64,000 bases of DNA from Bacteriovoracaceae bacterium (GTDB taxonomy: Bacteria > Bdellovibrionota > Bacteriovoracia > Bacteriovoracales > Bacteriovoracaceae): assembly GCA_048270185.1 (NCBI GenBank), contig JBLWTJ010000003.1:192001-256000 (forward strand). Reading direction: 5' to 3'. Positions 2,247 to 22,187 of this stretch are shown here, piece by piece (position 1 is the first letter of the stretch; every line of letters starts with the position of its first letter). The notes under the pieces were generated by a model, which saw nothing but the letters and a program-made list of their open reading frames with translations, was not told the DNA's origin and did not search any database. The translations under genes and the position numbers were made by a program.

Positions 2247-4157
2247 GTGATGAATTTTTCACGACTTTCAAAAATACTTATCAGTATTTTTCTTATATTT
2301 AACACGATTACAATATCGGCCCAAAATCTTACTAAAGATGATGACTTTCTAAAAGAAAGTAAGCTTAAAGATATTATCATTCGTGAAATTGCCAATCTTA
2401 ACCTATCAACTTCAATTAAGCTTTTGGATTTTGATAAGGTAAAGGGACTTGATGTTGGGCTCAAGTATGGCTATGAGATGACGCCATCTTATTTAAAGGG
2501 CAAGTTTGCAAGAGTAGATGAGTGGACACTTAGTCGCTCAGTAAACCCCGGCTCGATTATTGATGCTGTGACACCAATTAACCTAACACTTTCAAAAAGT
2601 GATCGCATTACTTTTATACGTCACTTTGAAAGTCAAAAGAAGGCGATCCTAGCACTTCCTTATTCGATAAATAAAATCCCATACAATGCACAGAGCACAT
2701 TAAAAAGACTTAAAGTAGGTGACTTTGTTAGTATTCCTGCCACAATGAGCCTAAATATTGGAGTTAGTGCTGGCTACGGCTTTGGTGAAATTATCGCGGC
2801 CAAGGGGTATGCTAATTTAATTACAAGTGGAAATTTTAATATCAATATCTTTCGAATGGATGAAAATAAAGTTCGCTTAAAAATAGTTACGCGTACTTCA
2901 TCTGAAGCAAAGGTTGGTGCCAATTTAAAAAGTGATTTCTTTGTTTCAACTTTAAAAAGACTGAAAGCGCCTGACTTTGTTTCTGACGTTCTTGAGTTAG
3001 AAGTTTTTGAGTATAAATTAGGGCGTGGTATAGGTGAGCAGTATATTCTGGACTATATATTTGATTTAAGTAATGAGAAGGCCCGTGAAGCTTATGATAG
3101 AATCTTAAAACCTAAGTTTAAACTTAATTTCGAAAAGGTTATTGGCCAGTACCAGGGGCGTGAGTACATTGAAGACAAACTCATTTCAGACTTTAAAATG
3201 GCCAATGAATTATCCCAATTAAATGATGGAGTCGAATTACTTTTTCAAGGTTTTAACCAGTATAAGTTTAAAAGGAAAGGTTTTGAATTTGGTCTTTTCA
3301 TTTCAAAGATTGAATCGGGGATGACTTACTTTAAAAATAATATTTCGATTATTTCAGGTAATGAAGCCGGTGATTTCTTCTTTCCAAACAAGGTTTATAA
3401 GTACAAAGAGGAGTTTAATATCTTAGTTCACAGGCGAGAGGACAAGATTGAAGAATCCTTCTTTTCTTTTATTCCAAAATCAAAGACATTATCACAGTCT
3501 TCGATTGATTTCGGTACGAATTATTTAAGAAAAGATCGCTACTTTACACGTGGAGAGTGGAAAAGTGTAAGAAGAAAGATTAAGGCTCTAATTCCAAGTG
3601 ATATTTTCTTAAAAATCGACTTTAATGAACTTGAACAAATTAAAACAAATATCACGACTGAAGTTAGTTACCGCTTAGTTTTTAGAAAAGAGATCTTCAA
3701 CTTTATGGAAGGTGTAACGATTGAGAAGATTATTGACGAAGTTAATAAGATAAAAAGAGATCGTGGTCTTCGTGGCGTAAAAATTGATCGTAGTGGCAAT
3801 TATGTCACAAAGAAACTTTACTTCTGGCAACGATCTCATACTCGCTTAGTTGCTCGACGAATTCATCGTGTATTAAATTCTTTTAAAGATGATATTTATC
3901 GCAAGCTGGAAAATATTATTGATAATATTGATAAGAATGACTTTAGAAAATACTTTTACCGTGTTGTTCAAAGTCTCGTTCCTATTAATGATTTACAGAA
4001 TCTGATTTATTTTAAATTAGATATCCTAGGTAATAGAAGTAAGCCAGTTCACTTTAAATATGGTGAATATGAGTTTCCTAGTATTTATCATGAAATCTTA
4101 GATATAAACCGAGATTTCCATGATTCAAAAAGAGACTTAAAGATTATTACGGAGTAA
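2247..4157 (+). CDS. hypothetical exported protein
   Basis: 636-aa ORF with an N-terminal signal peptide; no family recognised. Confidence 0.75.
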   Translation: MMNFSRLSKILISIFLIFNTITISAQNLTKDDDFLKESKLKDIIIREIANLNLSTSIKLLDFDKVKGLDVGLKYGYEMTPSYLKGKFARVDEWTLSRSVNPGSIIDAVTPINLTLSKSDRITFIRHFESQKKAILALPYSINKIPYNAQSTLKRLKVGDFVSIPATMSLNIGVSAGYGFGEIIAAKGYANLITSGNFNINIFRMDENKVRLKIVTRTSSEAKVGANLKSDFFVSTLKRLKAPDFVSDVLELEVFEYKLGRGIGEQYILDYIFDLSNEKAREAYDRILKPKFKLNFEKVIGQYQGREYIEDKLISDFKMANELSQLNDGVELLFQGFNQYKFKRKGFEFGLFISKIESGMTYFKNNISIISGNEAGDFFFPNKVYKYKEEFNILVHRREDKIEESFFSFIPKSKTLSQSSIDFGTNYLRKDRYFTRGEWKSVRRKIKALIPSDIFLKIDFNELEQIKTNITTEVSYRLVFRKEIFNFMEGVTIEKIIDEVNKIKRDRGLRGVKIDRSGNYVTKKLYFWQRSHTRLVARRIHRVLNSFKDDIYRKLENIIDNIDKNDFRKYFYRVVQSLVPINDLQNLIYFKLDILGNRSKPVHFKYGEYEFPSIYHEILDINRDFHDSKRDLKIITE

Positions 4158-4160
4158 TCC

Positions 4161-4769
4161 ATGAGTGATTATAAGGAATTTATCGGAGCCTTTAACGAAA
4201 CACCTGTTGAGATTTTTGAGCAGTGGTTTAAGGCAGCTGTTGAAAAAGAAGAAAATGGTGCAGCCTTTGTTCTATCGACTGTTGATACTGAGGGTGTCCC
4301 TAATGCAAGAACACTTTTATTAAAAGGCTTTGATTCACACAGACCTTTCTTCTTTTCGAATTATACATCAGTAAAGGGACAAGAAATTGAAGCCAACTCT
4401 AACGTGGCAATGACATTTTATTGGCATCGCCTTGGTAAACAAGTACGAGTTAGAGGAAAGGCCGTAAAGTGTAGCCTAGAACTATCGAGAGATTACTTCC
4501 ACTCAAGAGGGAAGGAGAGTCAAATTGCAAGCTTAACTTCTTCTCAGTCAAAACCTATTTCTAGTAGGAAAAAATTAGAAGATGAATTTCAAGCAAACGT
4601 CTTAAGGTATAATGATCAAGAGATTATTCCTCATCCACAAGAGTGGGGAGGGTATATGATTGATGTTGAAGAGATAACATTCTTCATTTACGGAGAGCAT
4701 CGCCTCAATGATCGCTTCCAGTTTATTAAGAAAGGGCAAGAGTGGGAATCGTTAAGACTTTATCCTTAA
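4161..4769 (+). CDS. pdxH: pyridoxamine 5'-phosphate oxidase
   Basis: PNARTLLLKG, FFSNYTSVKG, QVRVRG, YFHSR, WGGY, RLNDR, RLYP motifs. Confidence 0.95.
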   Translation: MSDYKEFIGAFNETPVEIFEQWFKAAVEKEENGAAFVLSTVDTEGVPNARTLLLKGFDSHRPFFFSNYTSVKGQEIEANSNVAMTFYWHRLGKQVRVRGKAVKCSLELSRDYFHSRGKESQIASLTSSQSKPISSRKKLEDEFQANVLRYNDQEIIPHPQEWGGYMIDVEEITFFIYGEHRLNDRFQFIKKGQEWESLRLYP

Positions 4770-5284
4770 TTACATTATTTGTTTTACTTTCATTCAAAGT
4801 TAGTGCCGCCAATGTCTATCTTGGTGGTGGCGGATCATTTAGTGGTGTCATCTCAAGCACAGATTACTACAATGGTGCTAACTCGTTTATTCCAGCTCTA
4901 AATTTAGGAGTTAGATATAACTCATTAGGGATTGATACATTCATTCGTAAGGGAACTCTTACAAATGAGCACCAGGGCTTTGATATTGATCTCGATACGA
5001 CTCAATTTGGTTTTATGTTTAGATTCTCTCCTGATGAATGGATGGATCTGAATCTTGGGGCACACTGGACAACAGTTGAAGGGAGTTCTTCAGTATATAA
5101 TGGCCAGAAACTTACTGGTCTAATTAATCGTACCGTTACCTCTGCTCTCTTTGGAGTAGGTTTTAACTTTCCCATCACTGAAAGATTTAGATTTAGAACT
5201 GATTTTAATTATTATCTAGGAAAAGAAGTACTATCACTTCTTCAATTTGATATTTCTCTTGTCTACAGCGTAATTACTTTTTAG
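4742..5284 (+). CDS. outer-membrane beta-barrel protein (small, OmpA/OmpW-like)
   Basis: Signal peptide, alternating aromatic/hydrophobic strands, C-terminal Phe. Confidence 0.7.
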   Translation: MGIVKTLSLITLFVLLSFKVSAANVYLGGGGSFSGVISSTDYYNGANSFIPALNLGVRYNSLGIDTFIRKGTLTNEHQGFDIDLDTTQFGFMFRFSPDEWMDLNLGAHWTTVEGSSSVYNGQKLTGLINRTVTSALFGVGFNFPITERFRFRTDFNYYLGKEVLSLLQFDISLVYSVITF

Positions 5285-5660
5285 AACTTGCTGGAATACG
5301 TCCATCATGTCGCTTTATGTACTTTGCAATTTCTGGTGTAATAGCATCTTGCTTTTCAAGAACGTCGATTAATTTACGATTATCAAGTTTCAATTTTTGT
5401 ACATAGTCTTCTGAATTATGAAGTTGTGCAGTAAGCTCTTGATGCTTATTCACTGTCTTCTCGTAAGCAATACGATAGAAGTTCATTTTTTCTTTAGCTT
5501 TTGCAAGCTCTGTCTTTGTATTATGAAGCTCTGTTGCCATCATCGATGTCTTATTAAGCTGCTTCTTATATTCAATAATATCTTTATCTGAAAAATCTCT
5601 TCCAGCTTTTACGACAAAAGCGATTAGAACGATAAAATGTGCAACAATAATCTTCTTCAT
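5274..5660 (-). CDS. hypothetical coiled-coil protein with N-terminal hydrophobic segment and C-terminal RIPAS motif
   Basis: ORF track; GGAG RBS; heptad-rich middle region. Confidence 0.75.
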   Translation of the reverse strand: MKKIIVAHFIVLIAFVVKAGRDFSDKDIIEYKKQLNKTSMMATELHNTKTELAKAKEKMNFYRIAYEKTVNKHQELTAQLHNSEDYVQKLKLDNRKLIDVLEKQDAITPEIAKYIKRHDGRIPASSKK

Positions 5661-5753
5661 AATATTTCTCCATTATTCAATTAACGTATCGACATATTAA
5701 AAAAAATCATTAATATTTTTCAAATTCTTCCGAAATAATAGGTACTTAGTGAC

Positions 5754-6023
5754 ATGCAAGGATGTTTTATGTTTTTAATTGATGTTAATTTATTCGAGGA
5801 CGAGTTCTACCTATTGCCCGTTGAACAGACTAAAGGTGACCAGTATAAGATTCAATGTCATTCAATTGAGTCGGCTAAATTACTGCAAGAATCACTTGAG
5901 AAGATGAAGCATCTTCATCCAACAAAGGATAAGAGTCGTTTCAAGCTTTTGAGGCAAGAGAAGCATTTTGGCTTTAATGTGAAAGTTTTAGGATATATTG
6001 AAGAAGAAAAAAAGGCCTCATAA
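5754..6023 (+). CDS. hypothetical protein (start may be the ATG at 5769)
   Basis: 89-aa ORF ending at a bidirectional terminator. Confidence 0.6.
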   Translation: MQGCFMFLIDVNLFEDEFYLLPVEQTKGDQYKIQCHSIESAKLLQESLEKMKHLHPTKDKSRFKLLRQEKHFGFNVKVLGYIEEEKKAS

Positions 6024-6032
6024 GAGGCCTTT
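6011..6032. terminator. bidirectional intrinsic terminator
   Basis: aaaggcctc-ataa-gaggccttt between convergent genes. Confidence 0.8.
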
Positions 6033-6039
6033 CGTTTAA

Positions 6040-6615
6040 TTAAAGATTTGAGTTAACGAAATCCCAATTTACAAGATTCCAAAATGCATTGATGTAATCT
6101 GGACGAGCATTTCTGTAATCAACATAGTAAGCATGTTCCCATACGTCGATTGTTAGAAGAGCTGTGTGACCATCTGTCATTGGAGTTTCTGCATCGTCAG
6201 TGTTAACGATTTCTAGCTCTCCACCTTTGTTCTTTACAAGCCATGTCCAACCTGAAGCAAAGTTAGTTGCCGCAGAGTTTGAAAATTCTTCTTTGAACTT
6301 ATCAAATGATCCCCATTTAGCATTGATAGCATCAGCAATTGCTCCAGTCGCTGCTCCACCTGCATTTGGTGCTAAACAATTCCAGTAAAAAGTGTGGTTC
6401 CAAACTTGAGCAGCGTTATTGAATAGTCCACCGCTTGACTTCATGATGATCTCTTCAAGAGTCATATTTTCAAATTCAGTCCCTGGGATAGCAGCATTAA
6501 GTTTTGTTACGTAAGCATTGTGGTGTTTACCGTAGTGAAACTCAATCGTTTCTGCTGAGATATGAGGTGCTAGAGCGTCTTTTGCCCATGGTAGTTCAGG
6601 AAGTTTATGTTCCAT
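6040..6615 (-). CDS. sodB: superoxide dismutase [Fe]
   Basis: [16 protein letters not shown] (Fe-type), DVWEHAYY motifs. Confidence 0.96.
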
Positions 6616-6743
6616 AGTAATTCTCCTTAGATTCTTAAATGTTTTTTGAACTCCATCATTCTAAAGCCTTAAGCGTTTAAGTGCAAAACGCGATTTGTTA
6701 AAGCAGTAAATTCTGTCATTCTGGATTAAATACTTATTTTAAC

Positions 6744-6770
6744 TCAAGAATTATCACCAAATGTCGATTG
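6744..6770 (+). promoter_or_regulatory. sigma28 (FliA)-like promoter
   Basis: TCAA-N15-GTCGATTG compared with consensus TAAA-N15-GCCGATAA. Confidence 0.5.
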
Positions 6771-6774
6771 CTTA

Positions 6775-7725
6775 TTGATGATATTTTCACGTTATCTCTT
6801 ACTATTTCCGACTTTTTTAATCTTGCTTTGCAATAATTCTTTTGCTTCGAGTTGGGCCGAGCGTGGTGGAACAATTCAGTCGGGTACTAATAAGTACACA
6901 GGTAATTGGAGAAGATTGGCCTCAAGTGAAGAGAAGAGTGTTGAACAACTAATTCAAATCGTTGCCACTTCAGAACTTGGTGTAAAGCTTATCGATAAGG
7001 CCAGGCTTCGAGCTGCCAAGGATCGCAAGCGTCTTGAAGAGGTCATTAGCGGTGGGGAAGTGTCGGTCACAGACACAACTTTAGTGAGAAAATTTAGCCC
7101 TCATTCACCTGAGAGTGTACGTTTTGAGACGCGATCTCGTGTCTATATTGATAAGTCTCATAGCACCAAGAATGCAGTATTAGACCTTATTCACGAATTA
7201 ACTCATTATATCTATAAGAAGCCATTTAACCCTTATTTGAGTGATTTTTCAGTATCGAGTTTTTTAAATGATACAATTCAAGGTCGAGGTGGCGAAGTCG
7301 ATGCTTTTCTTGTTGAATGTCGTATTGGCCGTGAGATTTATGGCCTAAAGGCAATTTCGCCACAATGTCTCAATATTCTTAGTGGAGATGAGTTTTCTCG
7401 CACATTGGCGGTAAAGGAATTTTATAAAATTGGTCATTACTATGATCAGTTCAAGAGTGATGCCACTGAACTAGGAATAGATAAGAAGGTTATCGCTGAT
7501 ATATCGAAGGACCAAACAAGTCTTGTTTCCTCGGCTTGGTCAAAGCCGTACCCAGTTGCTGTTGTTGCCGAGTATGAGGCGATAATGACTAAGGTCTGTC
7601 ATAATGATCTCAAGCGTATGACCTATCTTTCTGAGGAGCTAACGAGGGGGCCTGCTAGTAAATCCTCTAAGGTTAATGATGTTCGTTCAAAGTTTAATGC
7701 TAGATGTCGTTCTTATTTAGATTAA
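6775..7725 (+). CDS. secreted putative zinc metallopeptidase (HExxH)
   Basis: Signal peptide, LIHELTH, downstream GGEVDAF glutamate, RGPAS near the C-terminus. Confidence 0.6.
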   Translation: MMIFSRYLLLFPTFLILLCNNSFASSWAERGGTIQSGTNKYTGNWRRLASSEEKSVEQLIQIVATSELGVKLIDKARLRAAKDRKRLEEVISGGEVSVTDTTLVRKFSPHSPESVRFETRSRVYIDKSHSTKNAVLDLIHELTHYIYKKPFNPYLSDFSVSSFLNDTIQGRGGEVDAFLVECRIGREIYGLKAISPQCLNILSGDEFSRTLAVKEFYKIGHYYDQFKSDATELGIDKKVIADISKDQTSLVSSAWSKPYPVAVVAEYEAIMTKVCHNDLKRMTYLSEELTRGPASKSSKVNDVRSKFNARCRSYLD

Positions 7726-7797
7726 ATTTTATTGACGAGTCTATTAACAATGCCTCAATGCACTAACAAAAAATCTCTCTTTTTTCGTCGGGTTTAA

Positions 7798-7826
7798 TTG
7801 ACTAGGACTCTAAGCATTGGTAATTT
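7798..7826 (+). promoter_or_regulatory. sigma70-like promoter of nuoBCDI
   Basis: TTGACT-N17-TAATTT with TG extended -10. Confidence 0.5.
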
Positions 7827-7875
7827 ATAAGCTAAGAATTTCATAATTTTACATATCTAAAAAGGATTGCTGGCA

Positions 7876-8358
7876 ATGCAAGATAGTGTTGTTTTATTAA
7901 AACTTGATGACTTCCTTAACTGGGGAAGAAAGAACTCTCTATGGCCAATGACATTTGGTCTCGCATGTTGTGCTATTGAAATGATGGCAACTGGTGGATC
8001 TAAGTATGACTTAGAAAGATTTGGTTGTGGTGCTTTCATGGCGACTCCAAGACGCGCAGACTTAATGATTGTTGCAGGTACTGTAACACTTAAAATGGCC
8101 CCTAGAATTAAGACTCTTTATGAGCAAATGGCCGAGCCGAAATATGTTATTTCGATGGGTTCATGTGCGAATAAAGGTGGTCCATACTGGCAACACGGCT
8201 ACCACGTTCTAAAAGGTGTTGATGAGATCGTTCCTGTTGACGTTTATGTTCCAGGTTGTCCTCCAAGACCAGAAGCTCTAATCGAAGGTCTAATGACTCT
8301 TCAAAAGAAAGTCGCTAATGAAAGACTTCTTAAAGATAAGTGGGTGAAGCATGCTTAA
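7876..8358 (+). CDS. nuoB: NADH-quinone oxidoreductase subunit B
   Basis: [40 protein letters not shown] 7876 preferred over TTG 7867. Confidence 0.96.
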
Positions 8359-8989
8359 TGAGTTAGTAAGTTTTATCAATGATAAAGTAAGTGGTGCAAA
8401 TGCATCACTAATTGAAAACGAAGCAGGGGATAAGCCAATCCTAATTGATGCTTCAAAAATCAAAGACGTTTGCTACGCTCTTAGAGATAGCTCTGAATAT
8501 CAATTCAATGTCCTTCAAGTTGTATCAGGTGTCGATTACCCTGAAGAGATCGAAGTTAATTATATGCTAGCTTCTTTTATTACAAACTCAGATGACGTTA
8601 TCCTAAAAGTTAAGCTTCCTAAAGCTAACAAAGATGATGTTCCAAAAATCGATTCTGTTTGTGACGTTTGGAAGTCTGCGAACTTCTTAGAGAGAGAAGT
8701 ATATGACATGAACGGAGTTGAATTCGTTGGTCACCCAGACTTTAGAAGAATTCTATGTCCAGAAGATTGGGAAGGTTTCCCATTACGTAAGGACTATGAA
8801 GTTCAAAAAGCTTGGCAAGGTCATGAGATTAATCCTGAACATAAGATCAATAATGCTGATCATGAATTCTTTGCTAAGGCTAGAATTGATGCAGCTGAAC
8901 CGAAGAAAATTTCGGGGTCTTGGGACGGAAAGATTGCAGCCGACTTAGAAGCCGCTTTAAATAAGAAAATGGAAGAAGCAAATAAATAA
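8351..8989 (+). CDS. nuoC: NADH-quinone oxidoreductase subunit C
   Basis: [30 protein letters not shown]. Confidence 0.95.
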
Positions 8990-9005
8990 TTTTAAGGATA
9001 TTTTA

Positions 9006-10151
9006 ATGGAAGATAATACATTAAAAACACAACAAGAAGCCTTACATACTGATCTTCTGACAGTAAATATGGGGCCTCAACACCCTGCCACTCACGGGGT
9101 TCTAAGAGTTGAAATTAAAACTGACTCTGAAATCGTGGTTGAAGCGACACCTTACCTTGGTTACCTTCACCGTTGTATGGAAAAGCATAGTGAGCATTTA
9201 GACTACCGAGGAATCATTCCTTTCACTGATCGTATGGACTACCTAGCTTCAATGTCAATGGAGTGGGGATATGTTCAAGCAATCGAAAAGATGCTTGGTA
9301 CAGAAGTTCCAGAAAGAGCTGAGTACGTAAGAATTATCGTTGCAGAACTTCAAAGAATTGCATCACACTTAATGTACTTTGGTACATACGCAATTGACCT
9401 TGGGGCCTTCACTCCGTTCTTATATGCTTTCCAAGATAGAGAGCAAATCCTAAGAATCTTTGAAGAGCTTTCAGGAGCCCGTCTACTTTATAACTATATT
9501 TGGGTAGGTGGTGTATGGAATGATATTAATGACGATCAACTTCGTCGTATCGATAAATTCTGTACTGAAATGGAAGAGAACATGAAGAAGTACCACGATC
9601 TTGTTGGTATGAACGCTATTTTCCGTAACAGAACAGCTAATGTTGGTATCGTAACTCCTGAGATGGCCTATGAATATGGTGCGACTGGTGCTGTTCTTCG
9701 TGGTTCAGGTGTTGAATGGGACCTTCGTAAGAAGAAGCCATACGGACTTTATGAAAAATTTGATTTTGATGTTGTAACTGGTAAAGGTGAAATGGGAACT
9801 GTTGGTGACTGTTGGGATCGTTACTACGTACGTGTTTTCGAAATCTTTGAATCAATTAAAATCCTTCGCCAAGCACTTGATGGTATTGAAGCTGGACCAG
9901 TTATGGGGAAAGTTCCAAAAATCATCAAACTTCCAAAAGGTGAAATTTATACAAAAACTGAGTGTCCACGTGGAGAGCTTGGTTACCACATCGTATCTGA
10001 CGGTGGTAAGACTCCTTACAGAGTTAAAGTTAAGTCTTCATGTTTTACACACACTTCAATGCTTCCAGAGCTAGGGAAAGGGCAAATGATCGCTGACTTC
10101 GTAGCAACTATTGGTAGTATTGATATTGTACTAGGAGAGGTTGACCGATGA
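9006..10151 (+). CDS. nuoD: NADH-quinone oxidoreductase subunit D
   Basis: NMGPQHPATHGVLR, GYLHRCMEK, DIVLGEVDR. Confidence 0.97.
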   Translation: MEDNTLKTQQEALHTDLLTVNMGPQHPATHGVLRVEIKTDSEIVVEATPYLGYLHRCMEKHSEHLDYRGIIPFTDRMDYLASMSMEWGYVQAIEKMLGTEVPERAEYVRIIVAELQRIASHLMYFGTYAIDLGAFTPFLYAFQDREQILRIFEELSGARLLYNYIWVGGVWNDINDDQLRRIDKFCTEMEENMKKYHDLVGMNAIFRNRTANVGIVTPEMAYEYGATGAVLRGSGVEWDLRKKKPYGLYEKFDFDVVTGKGEMGTVGDCWDRYYVRVFEIFESIKILRQALDGIEAGPVMGKVPKIIKLPKGEIYTKTECPRGELGYHIVSDGGKTPYRVKVKSSCFTHTSMLPELGKGQMIADFVATIGSIDIVLGEVDR

Positions 10152-10666
10152 GCACTCAAGCAACTTATCAAGCAAGTGATGAACTAACGATTGGAAAGTG
10201 GTTTAATAATATCTGGACTGCAGTTAGAACGGTAACTAAAGGTCTTGGAATCACTTTTAAATATGTATACGGTGTTAAGCCTGTAACAATTGAATACCCA
10301 GAAGTTAGAGAGGAGCTTCCAAAGAACTCTCGTTCACGTCTTTTTAATGACGCTGAAAACTGTATCTCTTGTTACCAATGTGCAACAGCATGTCCAGTTG
10401 ACTGTATCTATATTACAGCTGTTAGACGTGAAAAAGATGCACCAGTACTTAAAACAAGTGGTGGAACTCCAATCAAGTTAGATCTACTTCAATACACAAT
10501 CGACACAGCTCTTTGCTGTTACTGTGGTCTTTGTACAACAGTTTGTCCTACTGAGTGTCTAACTCACACGACTGACTACGAATTCTCTCAATATACTCTT
10601 GATGAGATGAAGTATGACTACCTTGCTCCAGATATCAAAAAATGGCGTGAGCGTATTGTGAAGTAA
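10148..10666 (+). CDS. nuoI: NADH-quinone oxidoreductase subunit I
   Basis: Two CxxCxxCxxxCP motifs, VTIEYPE, operon context. Confidence 0.92.
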   Translation: MSTQATYQASDELTIGKWFNNIWTAVRTVTKGLGITFKYVYGVKPVTIEYPEVREELPKNSRSRLFNDAENCISCYQCATACPVDCIYITAVRREKDAPVLKTSGGTPIKLDLLQYTIDTALCCYCGLCTTVCPTECLTHTTDYEFSQYTLDEMKYDYLAPDIKKWRERIVK

Positions 10667-10689
10667 GCAACTTAAAAAAATGATTATAT

Positions 10690-10716
10690 AAGGCTCCGTT
10701 TGGAGCCTTTTTTTTT
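10690..10716 (+). terminator. intrinsic terminator of nuoBCDI
   Basis: aaggctcc-gttt-ggagcctt followed by a T-run. Confidence 0.88.
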
Positions 10717-10768
10717 GACACTGCTCAAGCCTTAAACACCCTAAGTTCTTAATATCCCATCAGAAATC

Positions 10769-10784
10769 TGGCACTTCTCTTGCT
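10769..10784 (+). promoter_or_regulatory. sigma54 (-24/-12) promoter
   Basis: TGGCAC-ttctc-TTGCT matches TGGCAC-N5-TTGCW, 39 nt upstream of the ATG. Confidence 0.75.
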
Positions 10785-10823
10785 CTATATAATCCTATCT
10801 TAAAAGTTTTTCTGGAGGATTAG

Positions 10824-11324
10824 ATGAAATCACTTATGAAAATTATGCTTCTTATGGCCCTAATGTTTAACTCATTTGCATCAGATAAGAAGATCATCAA
10901 GGCACTTGGCGATCTTAAAGTTGATGGGAAGCCTATGAAGTCTATCACTATTGAAGGGTCAAAGCTTTCAATCGGAGATGGTATCTCTAATCAATTCATG
11001 TTTGAATTTGATCCGAAGAATAAACGAATGAAAGAATTAATGATCGAAATCTTAAAAGAGAGCGATATAAATCTTTTAAAGAATTTAGAAGGAAAGATAG
11101 AGGCCCAGGTTCTAGTCTATGATGGTGAAGAAGTTAAGTTACTTGAAGCGATGGCACTTTTAGACTTTCTTGAGCGATGTGGCTTTGGTTGGATTTGTGA
11201 TGATGAAGACGATGAGGATGATGCAATCGAGCAAAGTGATTTAAAGCGTTTTGAAATTAAAGAATCTCAAATAATAAATAAAGAAGTAGTTAAGGCCGTA
11301 AAGTCTAACTCTTCTTTAAAGTAG
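10824..11324 (+). CDS. hypothetical secreted protein with acidic tract
   Basis: GGAGG RBS, signal peptide ending SFA, DDEDDEDD tract. Confidence 0.8.
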   Translation: MKSLMKIMLLMALMFNSFASDKKIIKALGDLKVDGKPMKSITIEGSKLSIGDGISNQFMFEFDPKNKRMKELMIEILKESDINLLKNLEGKIEAQVLVYDGEEVKLLEAMALLDFLERCGFGWICDDEDDEDDAIEQSDLKRFEIKESQIINKEVVKAVKSNSSLK

Positions 11325-12039
11325 ATAATTCCTTAGAAAACTCATTAATCTGGTCGAGCATCCTCTTGTGTGTCTCGGCCATAATTTCTTCAATATCATC
11401 TAGTGTCTTACCAACAGTTGAGATTGGCTCTAGTGCCTTCATAATTACTTTTCCAGGAACTAATTTCTTAAGATCAAATGATTCTTCATATTGAGAGAAG
11501 ACAACAGGATAGATAGGAAGTTGTCCTTCAATGGCCACAACAAATGGGCCCTTCTTAAACGGTAGTAGACCTCGACCTTTTGAACGAGTTCCTTCCGGCA
11601 TGATCCAAACATTGCAATTGTCTTCTTTAATCGTTCTTGCAACTTCCTTCATTACATTCCAGGCCTTCTTGCGATTGCCGCGGTTAATGAGGATATTTCC
11701 AGAAAGCCAGTACATTTGGCCAAAGAATGGAATATAGACAAGTGATTTTTTTCCAAGAGAAACAGTTCTCGTTGGAAGAATAGGGCCTACAAAGAAGATA
11801 TCAAGATTTGATTGATGGTTAGAAATAATAACACTATTTCTAATATACTTATGACCTTTAGGCATACGAGCATCAAGTTTAATATTTAAAAAGATGCGTG
11901 TTAGCCATGAGTAGTAAGTGGCAATAAAGTGCGTGTTACCACGATTGGCCGGTCTAAACATGCAAATTGGGATCCAGATAATTGTTCCAATAACAAGAAA
12001 TAGTCCAGCTAGAAATAGGCGAAAGTACATTAATAACAT
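11305..12039 (-). CDS. plsC: 1-acyl-sn-glycerol-3-phosphate acyltransferase
   Basis: SNHQSNLD (HxxxxD), PEGTRS, LLPFKKG. Confidence 0.93.
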   Translation of the reverse strand: MLLMYFRLFLAGLFLVIGTIIWIPICMFRPANRGNTHFIATYYSWLTRIFLNIKLDARMPKGHKYIRNSVIISNHQSNLDIFFVGPILPTRTVSLGKKSLVYIPFFGQMYWLSGNILINRGNRKKAWNVMKEVARTIKEDNCNVWIMPEGTRSKGRGLLPFKKGPFVVAIEGQLPIYPVVFSQYEESFDLKKLVPGKVIMKALEPISTVGKTLDDIEEIMAETHKRMLDQINEFSKELSTLKKS

Positions 12040-14084: not shown

Positions 14085-14138
14085 TAAATATTGTTATTTC
14101 AGATACATAGCGTTACGTCAAGATATGGAGGTAAACAC

Positions 14139-14999
14139 ATGGCCATTTTAAGTTTTTTTCTTATAACAATTTCCGTCCTATTTATTCCAACTGAGAAGCT
14201 TTTATCTAAATTCAGTGACTTAAGGAAGAAGTATCGAACTCGTTACCAAAGAGGGAAGGATTTACTCATCGAGTTAACAAGTCTCCACTTGTTAGGGGAT
14301 TTGACTCACTTATCTAGTTATAAGTTCTATGAGACCCTCATTCTTGAGATAGCCATCGTCACAAAAGAGTATGGTGTAGCAACTTCAAAGACCTTATCTA
14401 AGATCCGCCATGCACTTTCTAAGGACTTAGTAATTGAAAAGAAGCTGGCCGCTACAATTAGTGAAACTTACTTTCAGTTCTTCTTGTCACAGGCCTTAAC
14501 GGTTTTATTGAGTATCTTCTCGTCTTCAATTCTAGAGCTTGAAATTGATTTGACCTTTCTTTTGTTTGCTTCTCTATATAGTTTAATTGGATACTTTACT
14601 TTCGCACTTATTATTAAAAAACTTGAAAGGAGATTATTGTCTCCTGTTGGCCAGGCCCTTAAGTCATTTCTAATTTTTAAGATGCTCTACGATGTCGGGG
14701 CCCCTCTCAATTATCTTATTGAAAAATCTAAAATAAACTGCCTTATGGACCTTAAGACATCTTTCTCACACGAACTTTATCGACGCTTAGCTGCATTAGT
14801 GGAGCTTCGCCAAAACCAGGGGATGGAGATAAAAGAGGACCTTGAGTCGATGGAGATTGGCCTATGGGATGAGTATCAAGGCCAGAACGAAGCCTTAAGT
14901 AGTCGTGTCACTATCCTTAAGTTTGTCTGGCTTATAATCTTTTTCTTTACTCCGTACGTTGCTAACTTCTTCAGGCTCGTAACTCGTTTAAATCTTTAG
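14139..14999 (+). CDS. TadB/TadC-like (T2SS F-type) inner-membrane platform protein
   Basis: GGAGG RBS before ATG 14139; EYGV..LSKIRHAL..D pattern; several TM helices; Tad genes nearby. Confidence 0.5.
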   Translation: MAILSFFLITISVLFIPTEKLLSKFSDLRKKYRTRYQRGKDLLIELTSLHLLGDLTHLSSYKFYETLILEIAIVTKEYGVATSKTLSKIRHALSKDLVIEKKLAATISETYFQFFLSQALTVLLSIFSSSILELEIDLTFLLFASLYSLIGYFTFALIIKKLERRLLSPVGQALKSFLIFKMLYDVGAPLNYLIEKSKINCLMDLKTSFSHELYRRLAALVELRQNQGMEIKEDLESMEIGLWDEYQGQNEALSSRVTILKFVWLIIFFFTPYVANFFRLVTRLNL

Positions 15000-16769: not shown

Positions 16770-17810
16770 TTGAGAAGTGTTTATAAATTTGGTGGTAGCT
16801 CAATTAAAAGTGCTACCACCATTAAAGAAATCGCTGAGTTAATTTGTCATTGTCCAAACGACGCTCTTGTTGTTCTATCGGCAACATATAATTCAACGAA
16901 TGAGCTTGAAGAAATCTATCATAGTGAAAGTCATCTTCAGGAAGATCTCATTAAGGTTTTCTTTGATAAGCACAATAGTATAATATCTGAGCTAGGTTTA
17001 AACCTAAGCCTTGAGCATATTAAGGCCGAGCTTTGTGAAAGTCTTTTAAATGATAGTGGAGCAGATACTCTCGATTCGATCTATTGTATCGGTGAGCGTA
17101 CCTCAACGGCAATTCTTAGTAGCTACTTAACAAAGCTTGGTAAAGATCATCATCATGCCGACGCCCGAGATTTCATTACAACAAATACTGATTTTAATAG
17201 TGCGAAAGTACTCTTTAAAAATACAAAAGAGAAATGTCGTCAGCTAACAAAACATAAGCTTGTTATCACACAAGGCTTTATTGGAAGAACTCTTGATGGT
17301 AAAACTTCGACTCTCGGACGAGAAGGTTCTGATTACTCAGCGGCTATTTTTGCATGGGCCTTAGAAGATGTTAGTGAGCTTATCATTTGGAAAGATGTCC
17401 GTGGTATTTACGGGCATGATCCAAAGGTTCTCTCCAATGCTCCTCTGATATCTGCTCTAAGCTATCGCCAGACAAATCTATTAACAAACAAAGGTGCTAA
17501 GATCCTCTTTCATCGTACGATGAATCCTCTTATTGAAAAGGGACTACCGTTAATTGTAAAAAGTGTATTCCATCCGGAAGAGACCGGGACTCGTATCAGT
17601 GCAGAGGAGCGTGGAGCCTTTAAGGCCATCTCAACTGAAGATTCAACCATCACAGTCTTTGGTCAGGCCTTTGAAGATGTAAAACTTATTACTCATGCTT
17701 TTGAACTAGATGAGAATAATGATGATTACTTCTCGCTAAAAGTTAACCCACAAGAGATGAATGAGTGGATAAACCTCTTTGGTGATCAGCTATTTGGTTC
17801 TCATAAATAA
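16770..17810 (+). CDS. lysC: aspartate kinase (short C-terminus)
   Basis: VYKFGGSS, VVLSA, TQGFIG, TLGREGSDYSA, WKDV.G....DP. Confidence 0.88.
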   Translation: MRSVYKFGGSSIKSATTIKEIAELICHCPNDALVVLSATYNSTNELEEIYHSESHLQEDLIKVFFDKHNSIISELGLNLSLEHIKAELCESLLNDSGADTLDSIYCIGERTSTAILSSYLTKLGKDHHHADARDFITTNTDFNSAKVLFKNTKEKCRQLTKHKLVITQGFIGRTLDGKTSTLGREGSDYSAAIFAWALEDVSELIIWKDVRGIYGHDPKVLSNAPLISALSYRQTNLLTNKGAKILFHRTMNPLIEKGLPLIVKSVFHPEETGTRISAEERGAFKAISTEDSTITVFGQAFEDVKLITHAFELDENNDDYFSLKVNPQEMNEWINLFGDQLFGSHK

Positions 17811-18891
17811 CTGAAAAGATTGGCGTGTCATTTTCACTTCCATGAACTTCGATAATCTCTTTTACTTTCTTGTCCTCAAGAAAGATGACGTTATCAACAC
17901 TCTGGCATATTAGTTTTAATATTTGAGAAAAATCGATACCGTTTTTACTATTTGAAAAAATCGAAAAGAGAGTCGTTAGCCTTAAAAGAGTATCCTTGGC
18001 GTTATTGGCATGAATTGTTGTCATCATTCCTTTATGACCAGTATTCATCGCCAAGATAAAAGGAATGATTTCTTGTGAGCGTATTTCTCCAAGTAGGATT
18101 CTCTTTGGTGACATTCTAAGGGCATAACTACAATAATCGTTTAAGCTCTTTCCTGGGCTATCGTGGGCCAGGAGGTGAGTGGTATTTGAAATATCCCCAT
18201 CAATCTCTGAAACGTCTTCTATTATAATATGATGCTCTTTTTCATCACAAAGGCTTTTACAAACTCTAAGGAAACTAGTTTTTCCGCTGGCCGTAGAACC
18301 TGCAATCACAATATTCTTATAATTTGCAATGAGCCCATCAATTGCTATTCTAACTTCCTTTGTTAATGTGAAATCTGCCAAGGTGAAATTCTCTTTCTTA
18401 TGTACACGAATAAATAACTTTGCTGACTTTGAAGGTGTCAGGGATGGATGAGAGAGGGAGAGTCTTAAGTCAATTTCTCCTTTTGTTGTTTTTCTCGTAT
18501 CTTTGAAAGAAGCGAAAGGATGAGCAAAGTTCCAATCAATATTGAGTTTTCTTGTTAAGAAATTTAAACTGAGCTCGTAATCCTGTTGATTTAAGAATTC
18601 AACTTTAAGCTTGATTGTCTCCTGTCCCTCAACTTGTACATCACTTGGTGAGTGGATGATAAATTCATTTGCCTCATACATTTCAAGTAGGTCATTAATA
18701 TAGTCTTGATGGTAAACTTTATTAAACCAGGCTTTGACTGATTCAATATTTGAAATATCTTCTTGTTTGAGATTGTTTCGATTAAGAGTTTCTATGATGA
18801 TATTATCAAAATTAATAAATTGAGACTTTTTAGACGCTTCAATGATAGATGTCTTAAATTCATTAAAGAAGTATTGATCGATTGAGTTCAT
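17743..18891 (-). CDS. cpaF: CpaF/TadA family pilus assembly ATPase
   Basis: AGSTASGKTS, IIIED..E, ALRMSPKRILLGEIR, AMNTGH.G..TTIHAN. Confidence 0.88.
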   Translation of the reverse strand: MNSIDQYFFNEFKTSIIEASKKSQFINFDNIIIETLNRNNLKQEDISNIESVKAWFNKVYHQDYINDLLEMYEANEFIIHSPSDVQVEGQETIKLKVEFLNQQDYELSLNFLTRKLNIDWNFAHPFASFKDTRKTTKGEIDLRLSLSHPSLTPSKSAKLFIRVHKKENFTLADFTLTKEVRIAIDGLIANYKNIVIAGSTASGKTSFLRVCKSLCDEKEHHIIIEDVSEIDGDISNTTHLLAHDSPGKSLNDYCSYALRMSPKRILLGEIRSQEIIPFILAMNTGHKGMMTTIHANNAKDTLLRLTTLFSIFSNSKNGIDFSQILKLICQSVDNVIFLEDKKVKEIIEVHGSENDTPIFSVIYENQIADHQRGLSTHSSLVG

Positions 18892-18900
18892 TAGATTCCT

Positions 18901-20160
18901 TTATCGTAATTTCGCGATAGCAATAATTCGTTTATATGTTTTAAACTTTGCTGAAGAAGAAAATAGCTTTCCTAAGACTGGTATATTTCCTAGTAGAGGA
19001 ATATTTCGTGAAGAGTTGTCATCTGTTGTCAGATCAACTTCAAACATTTGAATGGCTGAATCCTTTCCAATTAGAAAACTCGATTGCTGAACATTACCTG
19101 ATATATATGTATCACCATTGAGCTGAGTCATAGGCCTTGTAAGCTTTGTTTTATACTTTATTTTGTAGCGATTATTGATTCGACTCAGTGTTAAATCAAT
19201 TTTTAATCCTGCAAATTTCCATTGGGTATTATTTCCATTATTCACTGTTGTCGTCGTATAGGGAACTTCAGATCCAATTTGGACAATCGATTTTTCATTC
19301 GTACGAAGGAGGATTTTCTGTGTCGCAAGTGTAGAGACTTCATAATCAGTATCCCTAAGGAGTATATTTTGATTTCTTGTTAAAGCGATCGCACCATTAT
19401 CAAGAAGGTCTGTAAGACCAACATTGATTTGATCGAGTCCAAAGTTAATTTCTCTTCCATCGAGTCTTTCAATTTGAATAATTCTCATTTCCAATTTGTG
19501 ATTATCTAAATTATCAAATCTTTGGGATAGCCTAAATTTAACAAAGTATTTTTTCTCTATTGGGGCCAAGAATTTCTGATCTTTTAAAATCTCTTCACTT
19601 GTCTCACATATAATATCAAGTTGAGACTTCATACATCTGATATCATCATAGTAGTTTTGAAAGAAACGATGATGAACTTCTGATATAATACTCTTTGCAA
19701 CTTTATCTTCGAGCTTACCTTGGAAGATGATCTCTTGGTTTTTTTGAAGTAGAGGTCTTAAGACTAAGTACTGCTCAGTTGTTCTAATATTTCCTGTAAT
19801 AAAGAGACGATCTCCTTTAATTCTTCCTGTGATGCCAAAATTCTTTAGATTCGCTAAGATCTCAAGCATTTTAAATTGACCGGCCTTAGAAAGAACATAT
19901 ATCGATATCGTACGCTTTTGATTATTCTGCCAAAGAGTGATGATTGAGCGTCCTTTCATTGAGCCCTTAATCAATAATTTTGAGTTGGCCTTATCGTGCT
20001 TACTTGTTAGGATCTCCTTGTTTGAGATACTGAAGCTTTCCACTCCCTTTAACGAAATTTCAGTAACTTGGCCTATGCTGAGAGTGATCTGGTTCTGCTT
20101 TACTGCGTAAACATTGAAATTTACGACAGATATTAAGGTAATCACTTTGACAAATGGCAT
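18901..20160 (-). CDS. CpaC/RcpA-like pilus secretin
   Basis: N-terminal pilus-formation domain pattern, GSEVPY, WKFAGL, IPLLGNIPVLGKLFSS. Start moved to 20160 because the upstream ORF extension overlaps a + strand gene. Confidence 0.82.
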   Translation of the reverse strand: MPFVKVITLISVVNFNVYAVKQNQITLSIGQVTEISLKGVESFSISNKEILTSKHDKANSKLLIKGSMKGRSIITLWQNNQKRTISIYVLSKAGQFKMLEILANLKNFGITGRIKGDRLFITGNIRTTEQYLVLRPLLQKNQEIIFQGKLEDKVAKSIISEVHHRFFQNYYDDIRCMKSQLDIICETSEEILKDQKFLAPIEKKYFVKFRLSQRFDNLDNHKLEMRIIQIERLDGREINFGLDQINVGLTDLLDNGAIALTRNQNILLRDTDYEVSTLATQKILLRTNEKSIVQIGSEVPYTTTTVNNGNNTQWKFAGLKIDLTLSRINNRYKIKYKTKLTRPMTQLNGDTYISGNVQQSSFLIGKDSAIQMFEVDLTTDDNSSRNIPLLGNIPVLGKLFSSSAKFKTYKRIIAIAKLR

Positions 20161-20233
20161 GAATCTTAGTAAAAAGTCATACTCAAAAGCTGTTTTAAAT
20201 TTAGTTTTGTATATATTATTGAGGAGATAAATC

Positions 20234-20359
20234 ATGGTTTCAAGAACTCGTATCACAAGAAACAAGCGTAATGCTAAGAAAACAAAAATGGGTGCTAAGA
20301 GAAAAGCGCATAACAGAAACAAGGGAACAACTCCTAAGTTTAAAATTCATTTAGATTAA
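20234..20359 (+). CDS. small highly basic protein, 41 aa (not in ORF track)
   Basis: GAGGAG RBS, then MVSRTRITRNKRNAKKTKMGAKRKAHNRNKGTTPKFKIHLD*, followed by its own terminator. Confidence 0.8.
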   Translation: MVSRTRITRNKRNAKKTKMGAKRKAHNRNKGTTPKFKIHLD

Positions 20360-20388
20360 TATTAAATTTTTCTATTGATATATAAGAT

Positions 20389-20412
20389 AGGCCTTCTTTA
20401 TGAAGGCCTTTC
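20389..20412 (+). terminator. intrinsic terminator after the small basic gene
   Basis: aggccttc-tttat-gaaggcct followed by ttcttgttt. Confidence 0.75.
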
Positions 20413-20436: not shown

Positions 20437-20733
20437 TTAGCGTGCAAAGGTGTTACTAAGAACCTTTTGATTTTGTCTTACTAGGATAGGTTCAAAGTTC
20501 TTTCCCTTAAAGCATAGGTGAAGAAGGGCATCTTTATAAATGTCTTCACATGGATTCTTCTTTTTGATGAAAGCAAAGTCTGATGGTTTCACACTGTATT
20601 CTTTCATCATTTCTGTGATCATCTTGTACATGATATTTTCTTGATTATCGTATGTGTAGACTATGATCTGTCTTGCATGAATATTTGCTGAAAGAAGCAT
20701 CATAAGCAGACTAAATTTCAATTTCATAAGCAC
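20437..20733 (-). CDS. small exported protein in the Tad locus
   Basis: GGAGG RBS, signal peptide ending IHA, two Cys; true start probably MKLKF. Confidence 0.7.
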   Translation of the reverse strand: MLMKLKFSLLMMLLSANIHARQIIVYTYDNQENIMYKMITEMMKEYSVKPSDFAFIKKKNPCEDIYKDALLHLCFKGKNFEPILVRQNQKVLSNTFAR

Positions 20734-21208
20734 CTCCTAAAGGTTTTGGGTGGTTAGTAACTGGATATGAAGCTAACTCAAGGGCCTTAAATGGCTCAAT
20801 CTTATTCAACTCTGAAATAGGAATTTTTACTAAGTAGATAGGAGTATCATCATTACTAAGCTCTTTTATAATTTTTGCCTTATTTGTAATATGCTGGCTC
20901 CCTGAATATAGAGCGATAAATTGGTCTTTACCTACTGTATTGGTCATTTCGTTTATTTTAAGCTTTAGAATTGTTTCATCTTTATTAATGACAATCTCTC
21001 TTTCCTGAATGATTGGTTCTGATGGCATGGATAGAATAAAAGTAAAGATATTAGTCAGTAGAAGTGCCATCCAAAACTTCATATAGAGTGAGCGCTTTAA
21101 TTTCTCTTCTTTCTCCTTATTAAATAGAAGTGCTTGTGGAGTGTCCTTATTTGATTGAATTCCAATTGTTGATGAATTGTTTGATTTGTTGTTGTTTAGA
21201 ATTTTCAA
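20711..21208 (-). CDS. hypothetical single-TM protein in the Tad locus
   Basis: GGAGG RBS before TTG; one TM helix. Confidence 0.65.
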   Translation of the reverse strand: MKILNNNKSNNSSTIGIQSNKDTPQALLFNKEKEEKLKRSLYMKFWMALLLTNIFTFILSMPSEPIIQEREIVINKDETILKLKINEMTNTVGKDQFIALYSGSQHITNKAKIIKELSNDDTPIYLVKIPISELNKIEPFKALELASYPVTNHPKPLGGAYEIEI

Positions 21209-21479
21209 TCTTAACCTCCAAGTTGAGTACGAGTAAAAGTGAGCTTACAAAAACTGAAGTCCATAAAACTCCTTCAATTGTTGAATACCCATGGGACCCA
21301 AGTGCTGTGAACTTAGGGAGAAATCGTTGGAGAAAAGATTCTCCTTTAGTTTGAAATTTAGCTTGATGGCAAAAGAATGAATCTCGTCTAAGTTGCTTCC
21401 TTGATAATGAAAAGGCATATAGGCATTCCACTTCTTTTCCAACTTTGCTGTCTGATCGAAATTTCTTTTTATTTTCCAT
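21147..21479 (-). CDS. possible TadE-like pseudopilin (start uncertain)
   Basis: G|YSTIE followed by a hydrophobic helix at about 21290. The N-terminal part overlaps the neighbouring gene. Confidence 0.3.
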   Translation of the reverse strand: MENKKKFRSDSKVGKEVECLYAFSLSRKQLRRDSFFCHQAKFQTKGESFLQRFLPKFTALGSHGYSTIEGVLWTSVFVSSLLLVLNLEVKIENSKQQQIKQFINNWNSIK

Positions 21480-21898
21480 ATTCTCTTTCCTAGGGGATCG
21501 ATAACTCCCAAGTGAATAAGATTTTCTTTCTTACATTCTTTGATATTTAAAAGCTGAAATCGAAATAGGCCTCGATATGATGCTTGCCCCATTTTTGCCA
21601 TTCTTAAAGCTAGTTTTATTCCGGCCAATTGTTGGGGTGTGATCGACGTAAATTGTAAGTAATACAGCGTTCTAATCGATGCATTTGATATGGAAATCAT
21701 CTTATAAAAAGTGTCATACTTAGAGACGACTTTCTTGGCACAGATATATGAGCGATTATAATACTGAATGAGCTTAAGCTCCTCTAAAGACCTGGCCATA
21801 TTAGAAAAGATAATCGCAATAAATGCCATAAAAAAGAGTATGGCCACAAGACTGACACTACCTTTCTCATTTAGTTGCATTTTTGGGCCTGAGTCCAT
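21245..21898 (-). CDS. TadG/TadE-like pseudopilin
   Basis: NEKG|SVSLVAILFFMAF prepilin-like N-terminus; locus context. Confidence 0.6.
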   Translation of the reverse strand: MDSGPKMQLNEKGSVSLVAILFFMAFIAIIFSNMARSLEELKLIQYYNRSYICAKKVVSKYDTFYKMISISNASIRTLYYLQFTSITPQQLAGIKLALRMAKMGQASYRGLFRFQLLNIKECKKENLIHLGVIDPLGKRIWKIKRNFDQTAKLEKKWNAYMPFHYQGSNLDEIHSFAIKLNFKLKENLFSNDFSLSSQHLGPMGIQQLKEFYGLQFL

Positions 21899-22187
21899 TT
21901 GAGATTCCTAAGATTACTTTTTGCTTTTTGTACTTTAAGTATTTTTCTTCTTTATTCTTGATAAATTTCACAGTGTAGTTTGAGTTGATATATCTATTTA
22001 GATTAAGAATACTGACACACGAAAAAGTCTTCTTAGCTTTCTTGTCATCGTGAGATTTTATTAAAGTGTAGACATAACTACGAAAAACCATGGTGTTTTT
22101 ACAACGATAAGCTTCACTTGCCATACAAGCGTATAGGAAAACAATGAAAACGAGAGTAATAGCAAGTGAGGCCTCTAAGATCTTCAA
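21867..22187 (-). CDS. hypothetical membrane-anchored protein, possibly a minor pilin
   Basis: Hydrophobic N-terminal helix with Glu at position 5; directly follows flp. Confidence 0.5.
   Translation of the reverse strand: MKILEASLAITLVFIVFLYACMASEAYRCKNTMVFRSYVYTLIKSHDDKKAKKTFSCVSILNLNRYINSNYTVKFIKNKEEKYLKYKKQKVILGISNGLRPKNATK

Follow-up and report, generated by a model that had tools for sequence, protein, structure and literature searches.

A hidden gene inside a Tad pilus locus

Within a Tad pilus locus of a Bacteriovoracaceae bacterium lies a short open reading frame for a very basic protein, antisense to a secretin gene, which raises the question of what its product (P0001) does and what ties it to the pilus, if anything. 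We addressed this question from a stretch of 64,000 nucleotides (henceforth the window) together with homologous loci from related genomes. The original prediction had described a hidden 41-aa basic ORF with a GAGGAG ribosome binding site and a terminator of its own, and all of these were found (Table 1). Its count of 15 lysine or arginine residues and a single acidic one among the 41 was also correct, the acidic residue being an aspartate.

Table 1. Features at and around the small gene, in window coordinates
Feature	Position	Strand	Evidence and remarks
41-aa basic protein gene (P0001)	20234..20359	+	ORF, translation, homologues, proteomics of orthologue
Shine-Dalgarno GAGGAG of small gene	20221..20226	+	sequence; 7 nt 5' of ATG
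Predicted sigma-70-type promoter of small gene	20147..20175	+	-35 20147-20152, 17-nt spacer, -10 20170-20175
Intrinsic terminator hairpin with T-tract	20389..20409	+	listed on both strands
CpaF/TadA-type ATPase, downstream of secretin	17743..18891	-	PF00437 E 1.2e-27, TIGR03819 E 2.8e-28
Secretin (CpaC-like) ORF, 473 aa	18901..20322	-	PF00263 E 2.7e-10; probable start TTG 20322
SD-like AGGAG, 8 nt 5' of secretin TTG	20331..20335	-	antisense of Thr33-Pro34 codons
Hydrophobic N-terminal secretin extension, before signal-peptide-like segment	20161..20322	-	translation
ORF of about 98 aa, converging on small gene	20437..20733	-	last gene of flp-side cluster

The homologues begin with the same start methionine, and most are preceded by a Shine-Dalgarno-like site. 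The predicted promoter sits within the secretin coding region of the opposite strand. Of 88 homologous loci, seven near-duplicate or false ones having been left out, 56 carry its core (TTGAC-N17-TA) no more than 130 nt upstream of the gene, compared to 18 of 5,195 control windows. Terminator-like sites are also concentrated here (six in 3 kb, compared to 1.4 +/- 1.2 in shuffled sequences), hairpins followed the gene in all 16 relatives' loci that were folded, and the hairpin of the window may act weakly as a terminator on the minus strand as well. Between the window and four close relatives the small gene shows six synonymous and no non-synonymous differences, and pN was below pS in 12 of 12 pairs, which shows that it is under purifying selection. 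By codon score (0.118) it ranks within the top 1.5% of its own genome (about 2,965 genes, crudely called) and falls in the middle of the range spanned by 25 ribosomal genes; tested against a composition-matched null, the score has p 0.0012.

The flanking genes had been named as secretin and cpaF on one side, which Pfam confirmed, and flp and pseudopilin genes on the other, where only part of the description held: there is a Flp-like ORF with a weak match that stays below the cut-off (PF04964, E 0.003), and the 'pseudopilin' labels found no Pfam or NCBIfam support. The stretch that separates flp from the small gene (20437-22187) contains five minus-strand ORFs with no match in either database, and among them the 98-aa one is conserved throughout the order, adjoining the small gene in 43 loci, all of families f1 and f2 (the order of the window). 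On the plus strand at 14091-14999, 2.7 kb from cpaF, a 302-aa membrane-protein ORF looks TadB/TadC-like by eye and had no significant family match.

Distribution and conservation of the family

A single-sequence search with P0001 matched 31 of 41 relatives, and close matches bear names as hypothetical proteins of Halobacteriovorax and Bacteriovorax. A family profile built from 37 rows matched 266 of the 301 genomes searched in the phylum of the window, nearly always once per genome (260 of the 266). Among high-quality genomes of the phylum the family is present in 249 of 279; by genus it is present in 153 of 170, and in the taxonomic family of the window in 74 of 74 genomes. It is kept even in a reduced genome of 0.9 Mb (G025). 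A second match in the genome G017 was bS20 by our reading of the sequence and was dropped from the family. Three taxonomic families stand apart: f6 with a profile match in just one of 29 genomes (E 0.04), f16 (0 of 3) and f20 (0 of 2). A search of 40 negative genomes with a broader profile yielded no convincing member, upholding these absences.

The conservation across Bdellovibrionota and Myxococcota that the original prediction had proposed to look for was found by the profile search. In Myxococcota, with at most 32 candidates scored per genome, 107 of 201 genomes had matches, comprising 78 long, 28 short (covering only the first 28-29 profile positions) and one false; the match in G490 was the one judged false. 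Inspection of 20 weak matches confirmed 19 as true members, which share the N-terminal core and differ in their tail. In all, 327 cluster representatives pass E 1e-3, and the named loci include Sorangium, Minicystis, Sandaracinus and many Polyangiales. The gene is thus single-copy and near-universal in its own phylum, and patchy in Myxococcota.

Eight residues (M1, S3, R12, G20, R23, K24, G31 and T33) are each conserved in at least 90% of 143 sequences, a residue-specific pattern of conservation and not one of generic charge. The G(T)TPxFxIH tail expected in both phyla is widespread without being universal, as Bdellovibrio-type members end in a different tail. Members of family f4 (L026, L030, L084, L085, L093) carry a longer conserved C-terminal tail, and a tail-less variant (L168-L184) combines the same N-terminal core with a longer helical C-terminus; the latter is the only form found together with bS22. 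The AlphaFold model of P0001 (pLDDT 89.5, pTM 0.51) predicts a helix at residues 4-18, a kink at Gly20, a second helix at 21-30 and an extended tail, with no globular domain or core.

Genomic context

A divergent secretin gene lies beside or near the small gene in 70 of the 95 loci searched. Other neighbours change. Downstream of the small gene in the 48 non-f1 loci of the phylum we found metK (21), a convergent TonB_C gene (9), an Rsm22-family methyltransferase (5) and surE (3); two loci have the small gene behind tRNA-Cys and one (G031) has it 15 nt behind a stand-alone rplC. The downstream methyltransferase of the five f4 loci listed above matches mitochondrial Rsm22 (PF09243). From 130 ORFs extracted around the Myxococcota matches, 68 were scanned; they included aminotransferase IV, Dus and SPOUT methyltransferase genes, among others, and none of the 68 was a Tad gene. 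Such wide variation means that the small gene is not tied to the pilus.

Among the 48 non-f1 loci and the Myxococcota loci checked, G031 is the only case next to a ribosomal protein gene, and location in a ribosomal operon is not required of every ribosomal protein. The rplC (uL3) in question (L310:2227-2952, minus strand) is full-length, lies outside an S10 operon and converges on efp; no second case of this arrangement occurred among the two genomes of that class. In many of the Myxococcota loci (among L149-L167 and others) the gene has no Shine-Dalgarno site and a -10-like TAGAAT stands about 10 nt 5' of the ATG, followed by GC-rich sequence, a layout that suggests nearly leaderless mRNAs.

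A probable antisense overlap with the secretin gene

The secretin ORF runs antisense to codons 1-30 of the small gene, its leader and its promoter. The original prediction had regarded this as a wrongful extension of the secretin by the ORF track, and we likewise considered a start at ATG 20160, with the long ORF as an artefact, before dropping it after the tests of phase, stop avoidance and promoter position. With respect to the small gene, the secretin frame kept one and the same phase in 75 of 77 f1 loci (one of 78 could not be located) and was open beyond Gly31 in 76 of the 77. Families other than f1 that share the divergent layout showed the three phases 6, 6 and 8 times in 20 loci, and the frame was closed before the ATG in 18; here the f2 locus was tallied apart and two loci were unassignable. 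Across leader and promoter, 72 loci had no stop in about 1,682 secretin-frame codons, compared to 129 and 139 stops in the other two minus frames. Inside the small gene none of 60 potential stop sites was realised when 14.6 would be expected, these sites not being independent, as against 6 of 27 in other families. Even the distance from the -10 element to the ATG, which takes 21 distinct values, was 1 mod 3 in 66 of the 68 f1 loci that carry the element, spread over 19 of those values. Phase is broken in two f1 genomes, L041 and L304; the secretin of L041 starts at an ATG of its own below the start of the small gene, a natural loss of the overlap.

These comparisons indicate that selection keeps the secretin frame open across the small gene, and that the 473-aa ORF is probably correct and begins at TTG 20322, with a ribosome binding site of its own, so that the supposed annotation error is contradicted. 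By the same token the gene is stand-alone in having its own promoter and terminator and yet is not the clean island that had been proposed, because the secretin frame is kept open across it. All 76 in-phase loci offer the secretin a start codon at codon 25 of the small gene or above, in 69 of them with a Shine-Dalgarno match of at least 4 nt. Where the frame closes by codon 42 (11 loci, including the window and the f2 genome), no such start exists other than the TTG at codon 30, preceded at 8 nt by (A)GGAG; this TTG occurs in 40 of 75 loci. Many other loci have an ATG with a Shine-Dalgarno site just beyond the stop of the small gene, which would nest the small gene wholly. The added secretin segment is hydrophobic (best 19-residue Kyte-Doolittle mean 2.67) because it is largely read antisense to Lys and Arg codons, and it is likely removed along with the signal peptide, so that it would need only to stay open. 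Bacteriovoracales secretins would accordingly start inside or past the small gene on the other strand and gain a disposable hydrophobic leader.

The layout suggests an antisense overlap of the noncontiguous-operon type. Like noncontiguous operons and excludons, it places a short opposite-strand gene amid co-directional genes, an arrangement conserved in the 43 f1/f2 loci alongside the conservation of the frame described above. In Staphylococcus aureus the opposite gene is reported to be a peptide of less than 50 aa in 7 of 22 cases (PMC11034616). The antisense stretch is described there as untranslated, whereas here the secretin frame is open through it. The two mRNAs would overlap, so mutual repression is possible, and the interference with read-through into the secretin gene raised in the original prediction is plausible, applying only to the order of the window. 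The Bdellovibrio expression data below have no bearing on mutual repression, since that genus lacks the layout. With one phase in 75 of 77 genomes, the long overlap offers a strong natural example of bacterial DNA coding on both strands and suggests how gene expression can cross an opposing, highly expressed gene.

Comparison with known proteins

P0001 and its relatives matched no family in Pfam or NCBIfam, and the family had no match among PDB sequences at E<=10. Foldseek with the P0001 model returned a single match (E 8.5), and VIA-align reached a best Z of 3.7 with generic helices, its top row being a mitoribosomal chain at a level that is not significant. Named clusters of the ESM Atlas all scored below 0.85, and the Rfam search gave only a chance match to the L20 leader (23.6 bits, the gathering score being 58.7). 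The resemblance in size and charge to tiny rRNA-binding proteins such as bL34, bS22/Sra and bTHX had been pointed out with the remark that none of them was recognisable, and indeed none gave a profile match. P0001 belongs to the same size and charge class as bTHX, bL34, bL32, bS21, uL30 and bL36. However, bTHX (PF17070) has no profile match and Thx was found in none of five genomes tested; bL34, bL32, bS21 and uL30 have no profile match and are each encoded by separate genes in all five; and bL36, again with no profile match, was rejected as a replaced protein given that it is already present in the spc cluster of the same genome. DUF6800 (PF20607) was also rejected (Atlas score 0.83 only, no match in 143 members or in five genomes).

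bS22/mS38 (PF08213) resembles P0001 in being small, basic, helical and patchily distributed, although none of the 143 members match it and the Atlas score of 0.76-0.78 has the rank of a lead only. Of 201 Myxococcota genomes 51 have it, among them none of the 78 with a long family match and 11 of the 28 that carry the short variant. It was not found in any of five genomes from the phylum of the window, and two of these (f6) lack the P0001 family as well. This exclusion between bS22 and the long form operates at the level of lineages, in which kin are not independent, and serves as a lead to a binding site only.

Precedents are CLaSP and bL37, also tiny, basic and lineage-restricted. CLaSP, a large-subunit peptide of Coxiellaceae, is described as having been discovered only through cryo-EM and as spanning 23S and 5S rRNA at the site of bL37 in Actinobacteria (bioRxiv 10.1101/2025.11.08.686982). 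It is an extended peptide of 22 aa, in contrast to the 41 aa and predicted helices of P0001, and P0001 has no PDB sequence match to bL37 or CLaSP, at lengths where HMM filters are weak and fold searches uninformative. Nor does presence of the P0001 family go with a shortened 5S rRNA, the 5S matches being 116-117 nt in genomes both with and without the gene. A further parallel is bL38 of Bacteroidota, reported as a clade-wide unnamed small ORF that was later proven to be a ribosomal protein (PMC11851116); it consists of a beta hairpin and a helix and is encoded in the rpmB-rpmG operon, unlike P0001, which is predicted to be all-helical and lies apart from ribosomal operons.

In a literature search mostly confined to freely accessible papers, no description of the P0001 family was found, and searches for the accessions and for Bd3766-Bd3771 turned up no main-text mention of the Bdellovibrio bacteriovorus orthologue (Bd3769; CAE81131/Q6MGZ6), which appears there only as an uncharacterised row in supplements.

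Expression of the Bdellovibrio orthologue

Bd3769 is nearly silent in the attack phase (4.7 RPKM) and abundant in the growth phase (1,491), as listed in Table S1 of PMC3627812. The same table gives, for attack and growth phase respectively, 3.7 and 3,955 for L31, 6.0 and 2,861 for S21, 20 and 11,495 for L35, and 199 and 3,286 for S20, so that Bd3769 shares the pattern of L31, S21 and L35, and in growth phase stays below all four ribosomal genes compared (2,861-11,495); the growth-phase class is shared by 1,557 genes (PMC3627812). In host-independent cells its RPKM is 1,106 (row 3,421 of 3,584, i.e. top 4.6%; PMC10627809 source data). The protein is absent from the label-free tables of the same source, including the 2,235-protein nucleoid table, as would be expected for a sequence with no fully tryptic peptide longer than 5 aa. 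It was detected in a life-cycle proteome, by three unique peptides with a peak at 3 h (log2FC 0.63, FDR 5e-9; PMC12546842). P0001 thus represents an unnamed family that is translated in B. bacteriovorus, and the profile range, the synonymous changes and these peptides together vindicate the view of the gene as real, conserved, translated and unnamed.

We compared the life-cycle profile of Bd3769 with 56 others, using 57 of the 2,195 proteins (PMC12546842 Supplementary Data 1 and 3). Measured against the averaged profile of 24 ribosomal proteins, the richest in peptides of 52 ribosomal matches, Bd3769 gave r 0.80 and rmsd 0.105, with a step-to-step r of 0.87. None of 32 controls came as close; these have 4-5 peptides and come from one block, and other housekeeping proteins such as RNA polymerase and EF-Tu, absent from the set, could match equally. 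Four of the 24 ribosomal proteins fit their own mean worse than Bd3769 does, and its late time points drop less than the mean. Its summed TMT signal averages 5.45, compared to about 6.4-10 for the 24 ribosomal proteins, which are far richer in peptides, and exceeds that of all 32 controls although only three peptides contribute. Expression and codon use therefore match those of ribosomal proteins in these data, a property that is necessary and not sufficient for being one.

A candidate ribosomal protein

Our preferred reading is that P0001 is probably a small ribosomal protein that binds rRNA and is specific to the lineages of Bdellovibrionota and many Myxococcota, acting in the mode of CLaSP, bL37, bS22 or bTHX. 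What leads to it is the combination of a ubiquitous, single-copy and context-free gene with a core-less protein, fixed residues and ribosome-like regulation, and the occasional translation-gene contexts (rplC, tRNA-Cys, Rsm22-family methyltransferase) count in its favour. Of the two functions first suggested, ribosomal or nucleoid, the former is made likely by expression, codon use and range and the latter less likely by the HU profiles (see below). The two basic helices, predicted to bend at the invariant Gly20, and the extended G-T-T-P-x-F tail would fold in a crevice of the rRNA in the absence of a globular core; Ser3, Thr8, Arg12 and Lys24 may make fixed rRNA contacts, and P0001 would staple rRNA helices together as small lineage-specific proteins of the CLaSP type do.

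An accessory factor of the growth phase, i.e. one for ribosome assembly, associated with tRNA or SRP, or a small partner of RNA polymerase, and not a permanent part of the ribosome, would be expected to show the same growth-linked expression and codon bias. It would also suit a stand-alone gene with its own predicted promoter, the Rsm22-like, RlmH-like and Dus neighbours of some lineages, and a Bd3769 signal lower than that of ribosomal proteins. We nevertheless consider it unlikely: the model has no globular domain, Bd3769 out-signals 32 of 32 controls on its three peptides, and the lone assembly-type control in the proteome, Bd2016 (COG1399; which we take to be YceD), swings far more (rmsd 0.68). 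Bdellovibrionota and Myxococcota are both known for predation, and a small cationic protein could be a hibernation factor similar to Sra or RMF, or else an exported peptide directed against prey, but expression in the tables cited above is maximal in growth and not in attack phase or prey entry, and the sequence has no hydrophobic export signal, so that such a role is very improbable.

A nucleoid-associated protein, or one that binds nucleic acids in general and helps to pack DNA, would also have the strong positive charge, and the phylum is reported to combine a highly compact nucleoid with unusual chromatin proteins (PMC10627809). Yet the Bd3769 mRNA is almost silent in the attack phase, the time of the tightest nucleoid, its protein profile correlates negatively with HU-alpha (r -0.25), HU-beta differs as well (log2FC 3.0 at 4 h), and conservation is residue-specific; absence from the nucleoid table carries little weight for the reason given above. 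There is accordingly not much probability left for this explanation. A component or regulator of the Tad pilus, retained chiefly for its antisense effect on the secretin, would account for the frequent divergent secretin-cpaF partner and for an antisense overlap conserved in the window's order. It would leave unexplained the nine Bdellovibrio-type (TonB_C) loci without a Tad neighbour, the lack of Tad genes among the 68 Myxococcota flanking ORFs, and a protein that is conserved whatever the context and is itself produced, and we give this role only the slightest chance.

Lineage-specific ribosomal proteins have so far been mostly chance finds in cryo-EM maps. Here a candidate is named beforehand in a genetically tractable and non-pathogenic model predator (Bd3769). 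If the ribosomal reading of P0001 is true, the inventory of the ribosome is extended to two phyla and a short single-copy marker is gained. More tentatively, and on balance doubtfully, the two strands of evidence may be joined: an undescribed core ribosomal protein of two predatory phyla, maybe in the role of bS22, whose gene in Bacteriovoracales would be truly nested antisense, with the secretin translated through it, coupling growth-phase ribosome production inversely to the synthesis of the pilus secretin. The ribosome binding site and start of the secretin would then be formed by the Asn-Lys-Gly-Thr-Thr-Pro codons of the small gene.

The literature search found no high-resolution ribosome structure from Bdellovibrionota or Myxococcota; a Bdellovibrio ribosome average at about 4.7 nm is reported (bioRxiv 10.1101/2022.06.13.496000). 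In 16S and 23S rRNA no alignment column separates genomes with and without the gene, the best difference being 0.81. Some 16S positions (E. coli 144/178, about 87-88, and 1414) track the gene partly, having been found by fishing and being confounded by kinship; U1414, for instance, is present in 15 of 16 genomes with the gene, and C in 9 of 11 without it. Four Myxococcota 23S genes, L245 (G379), L255 (G367), L256 (G512) and L243 (G499), contain large insertions (about 120-1,030 nt), possibly self-splicing introns, most of which lie around positions 1900-2000 and 2450-2500 in E. coli numbering.
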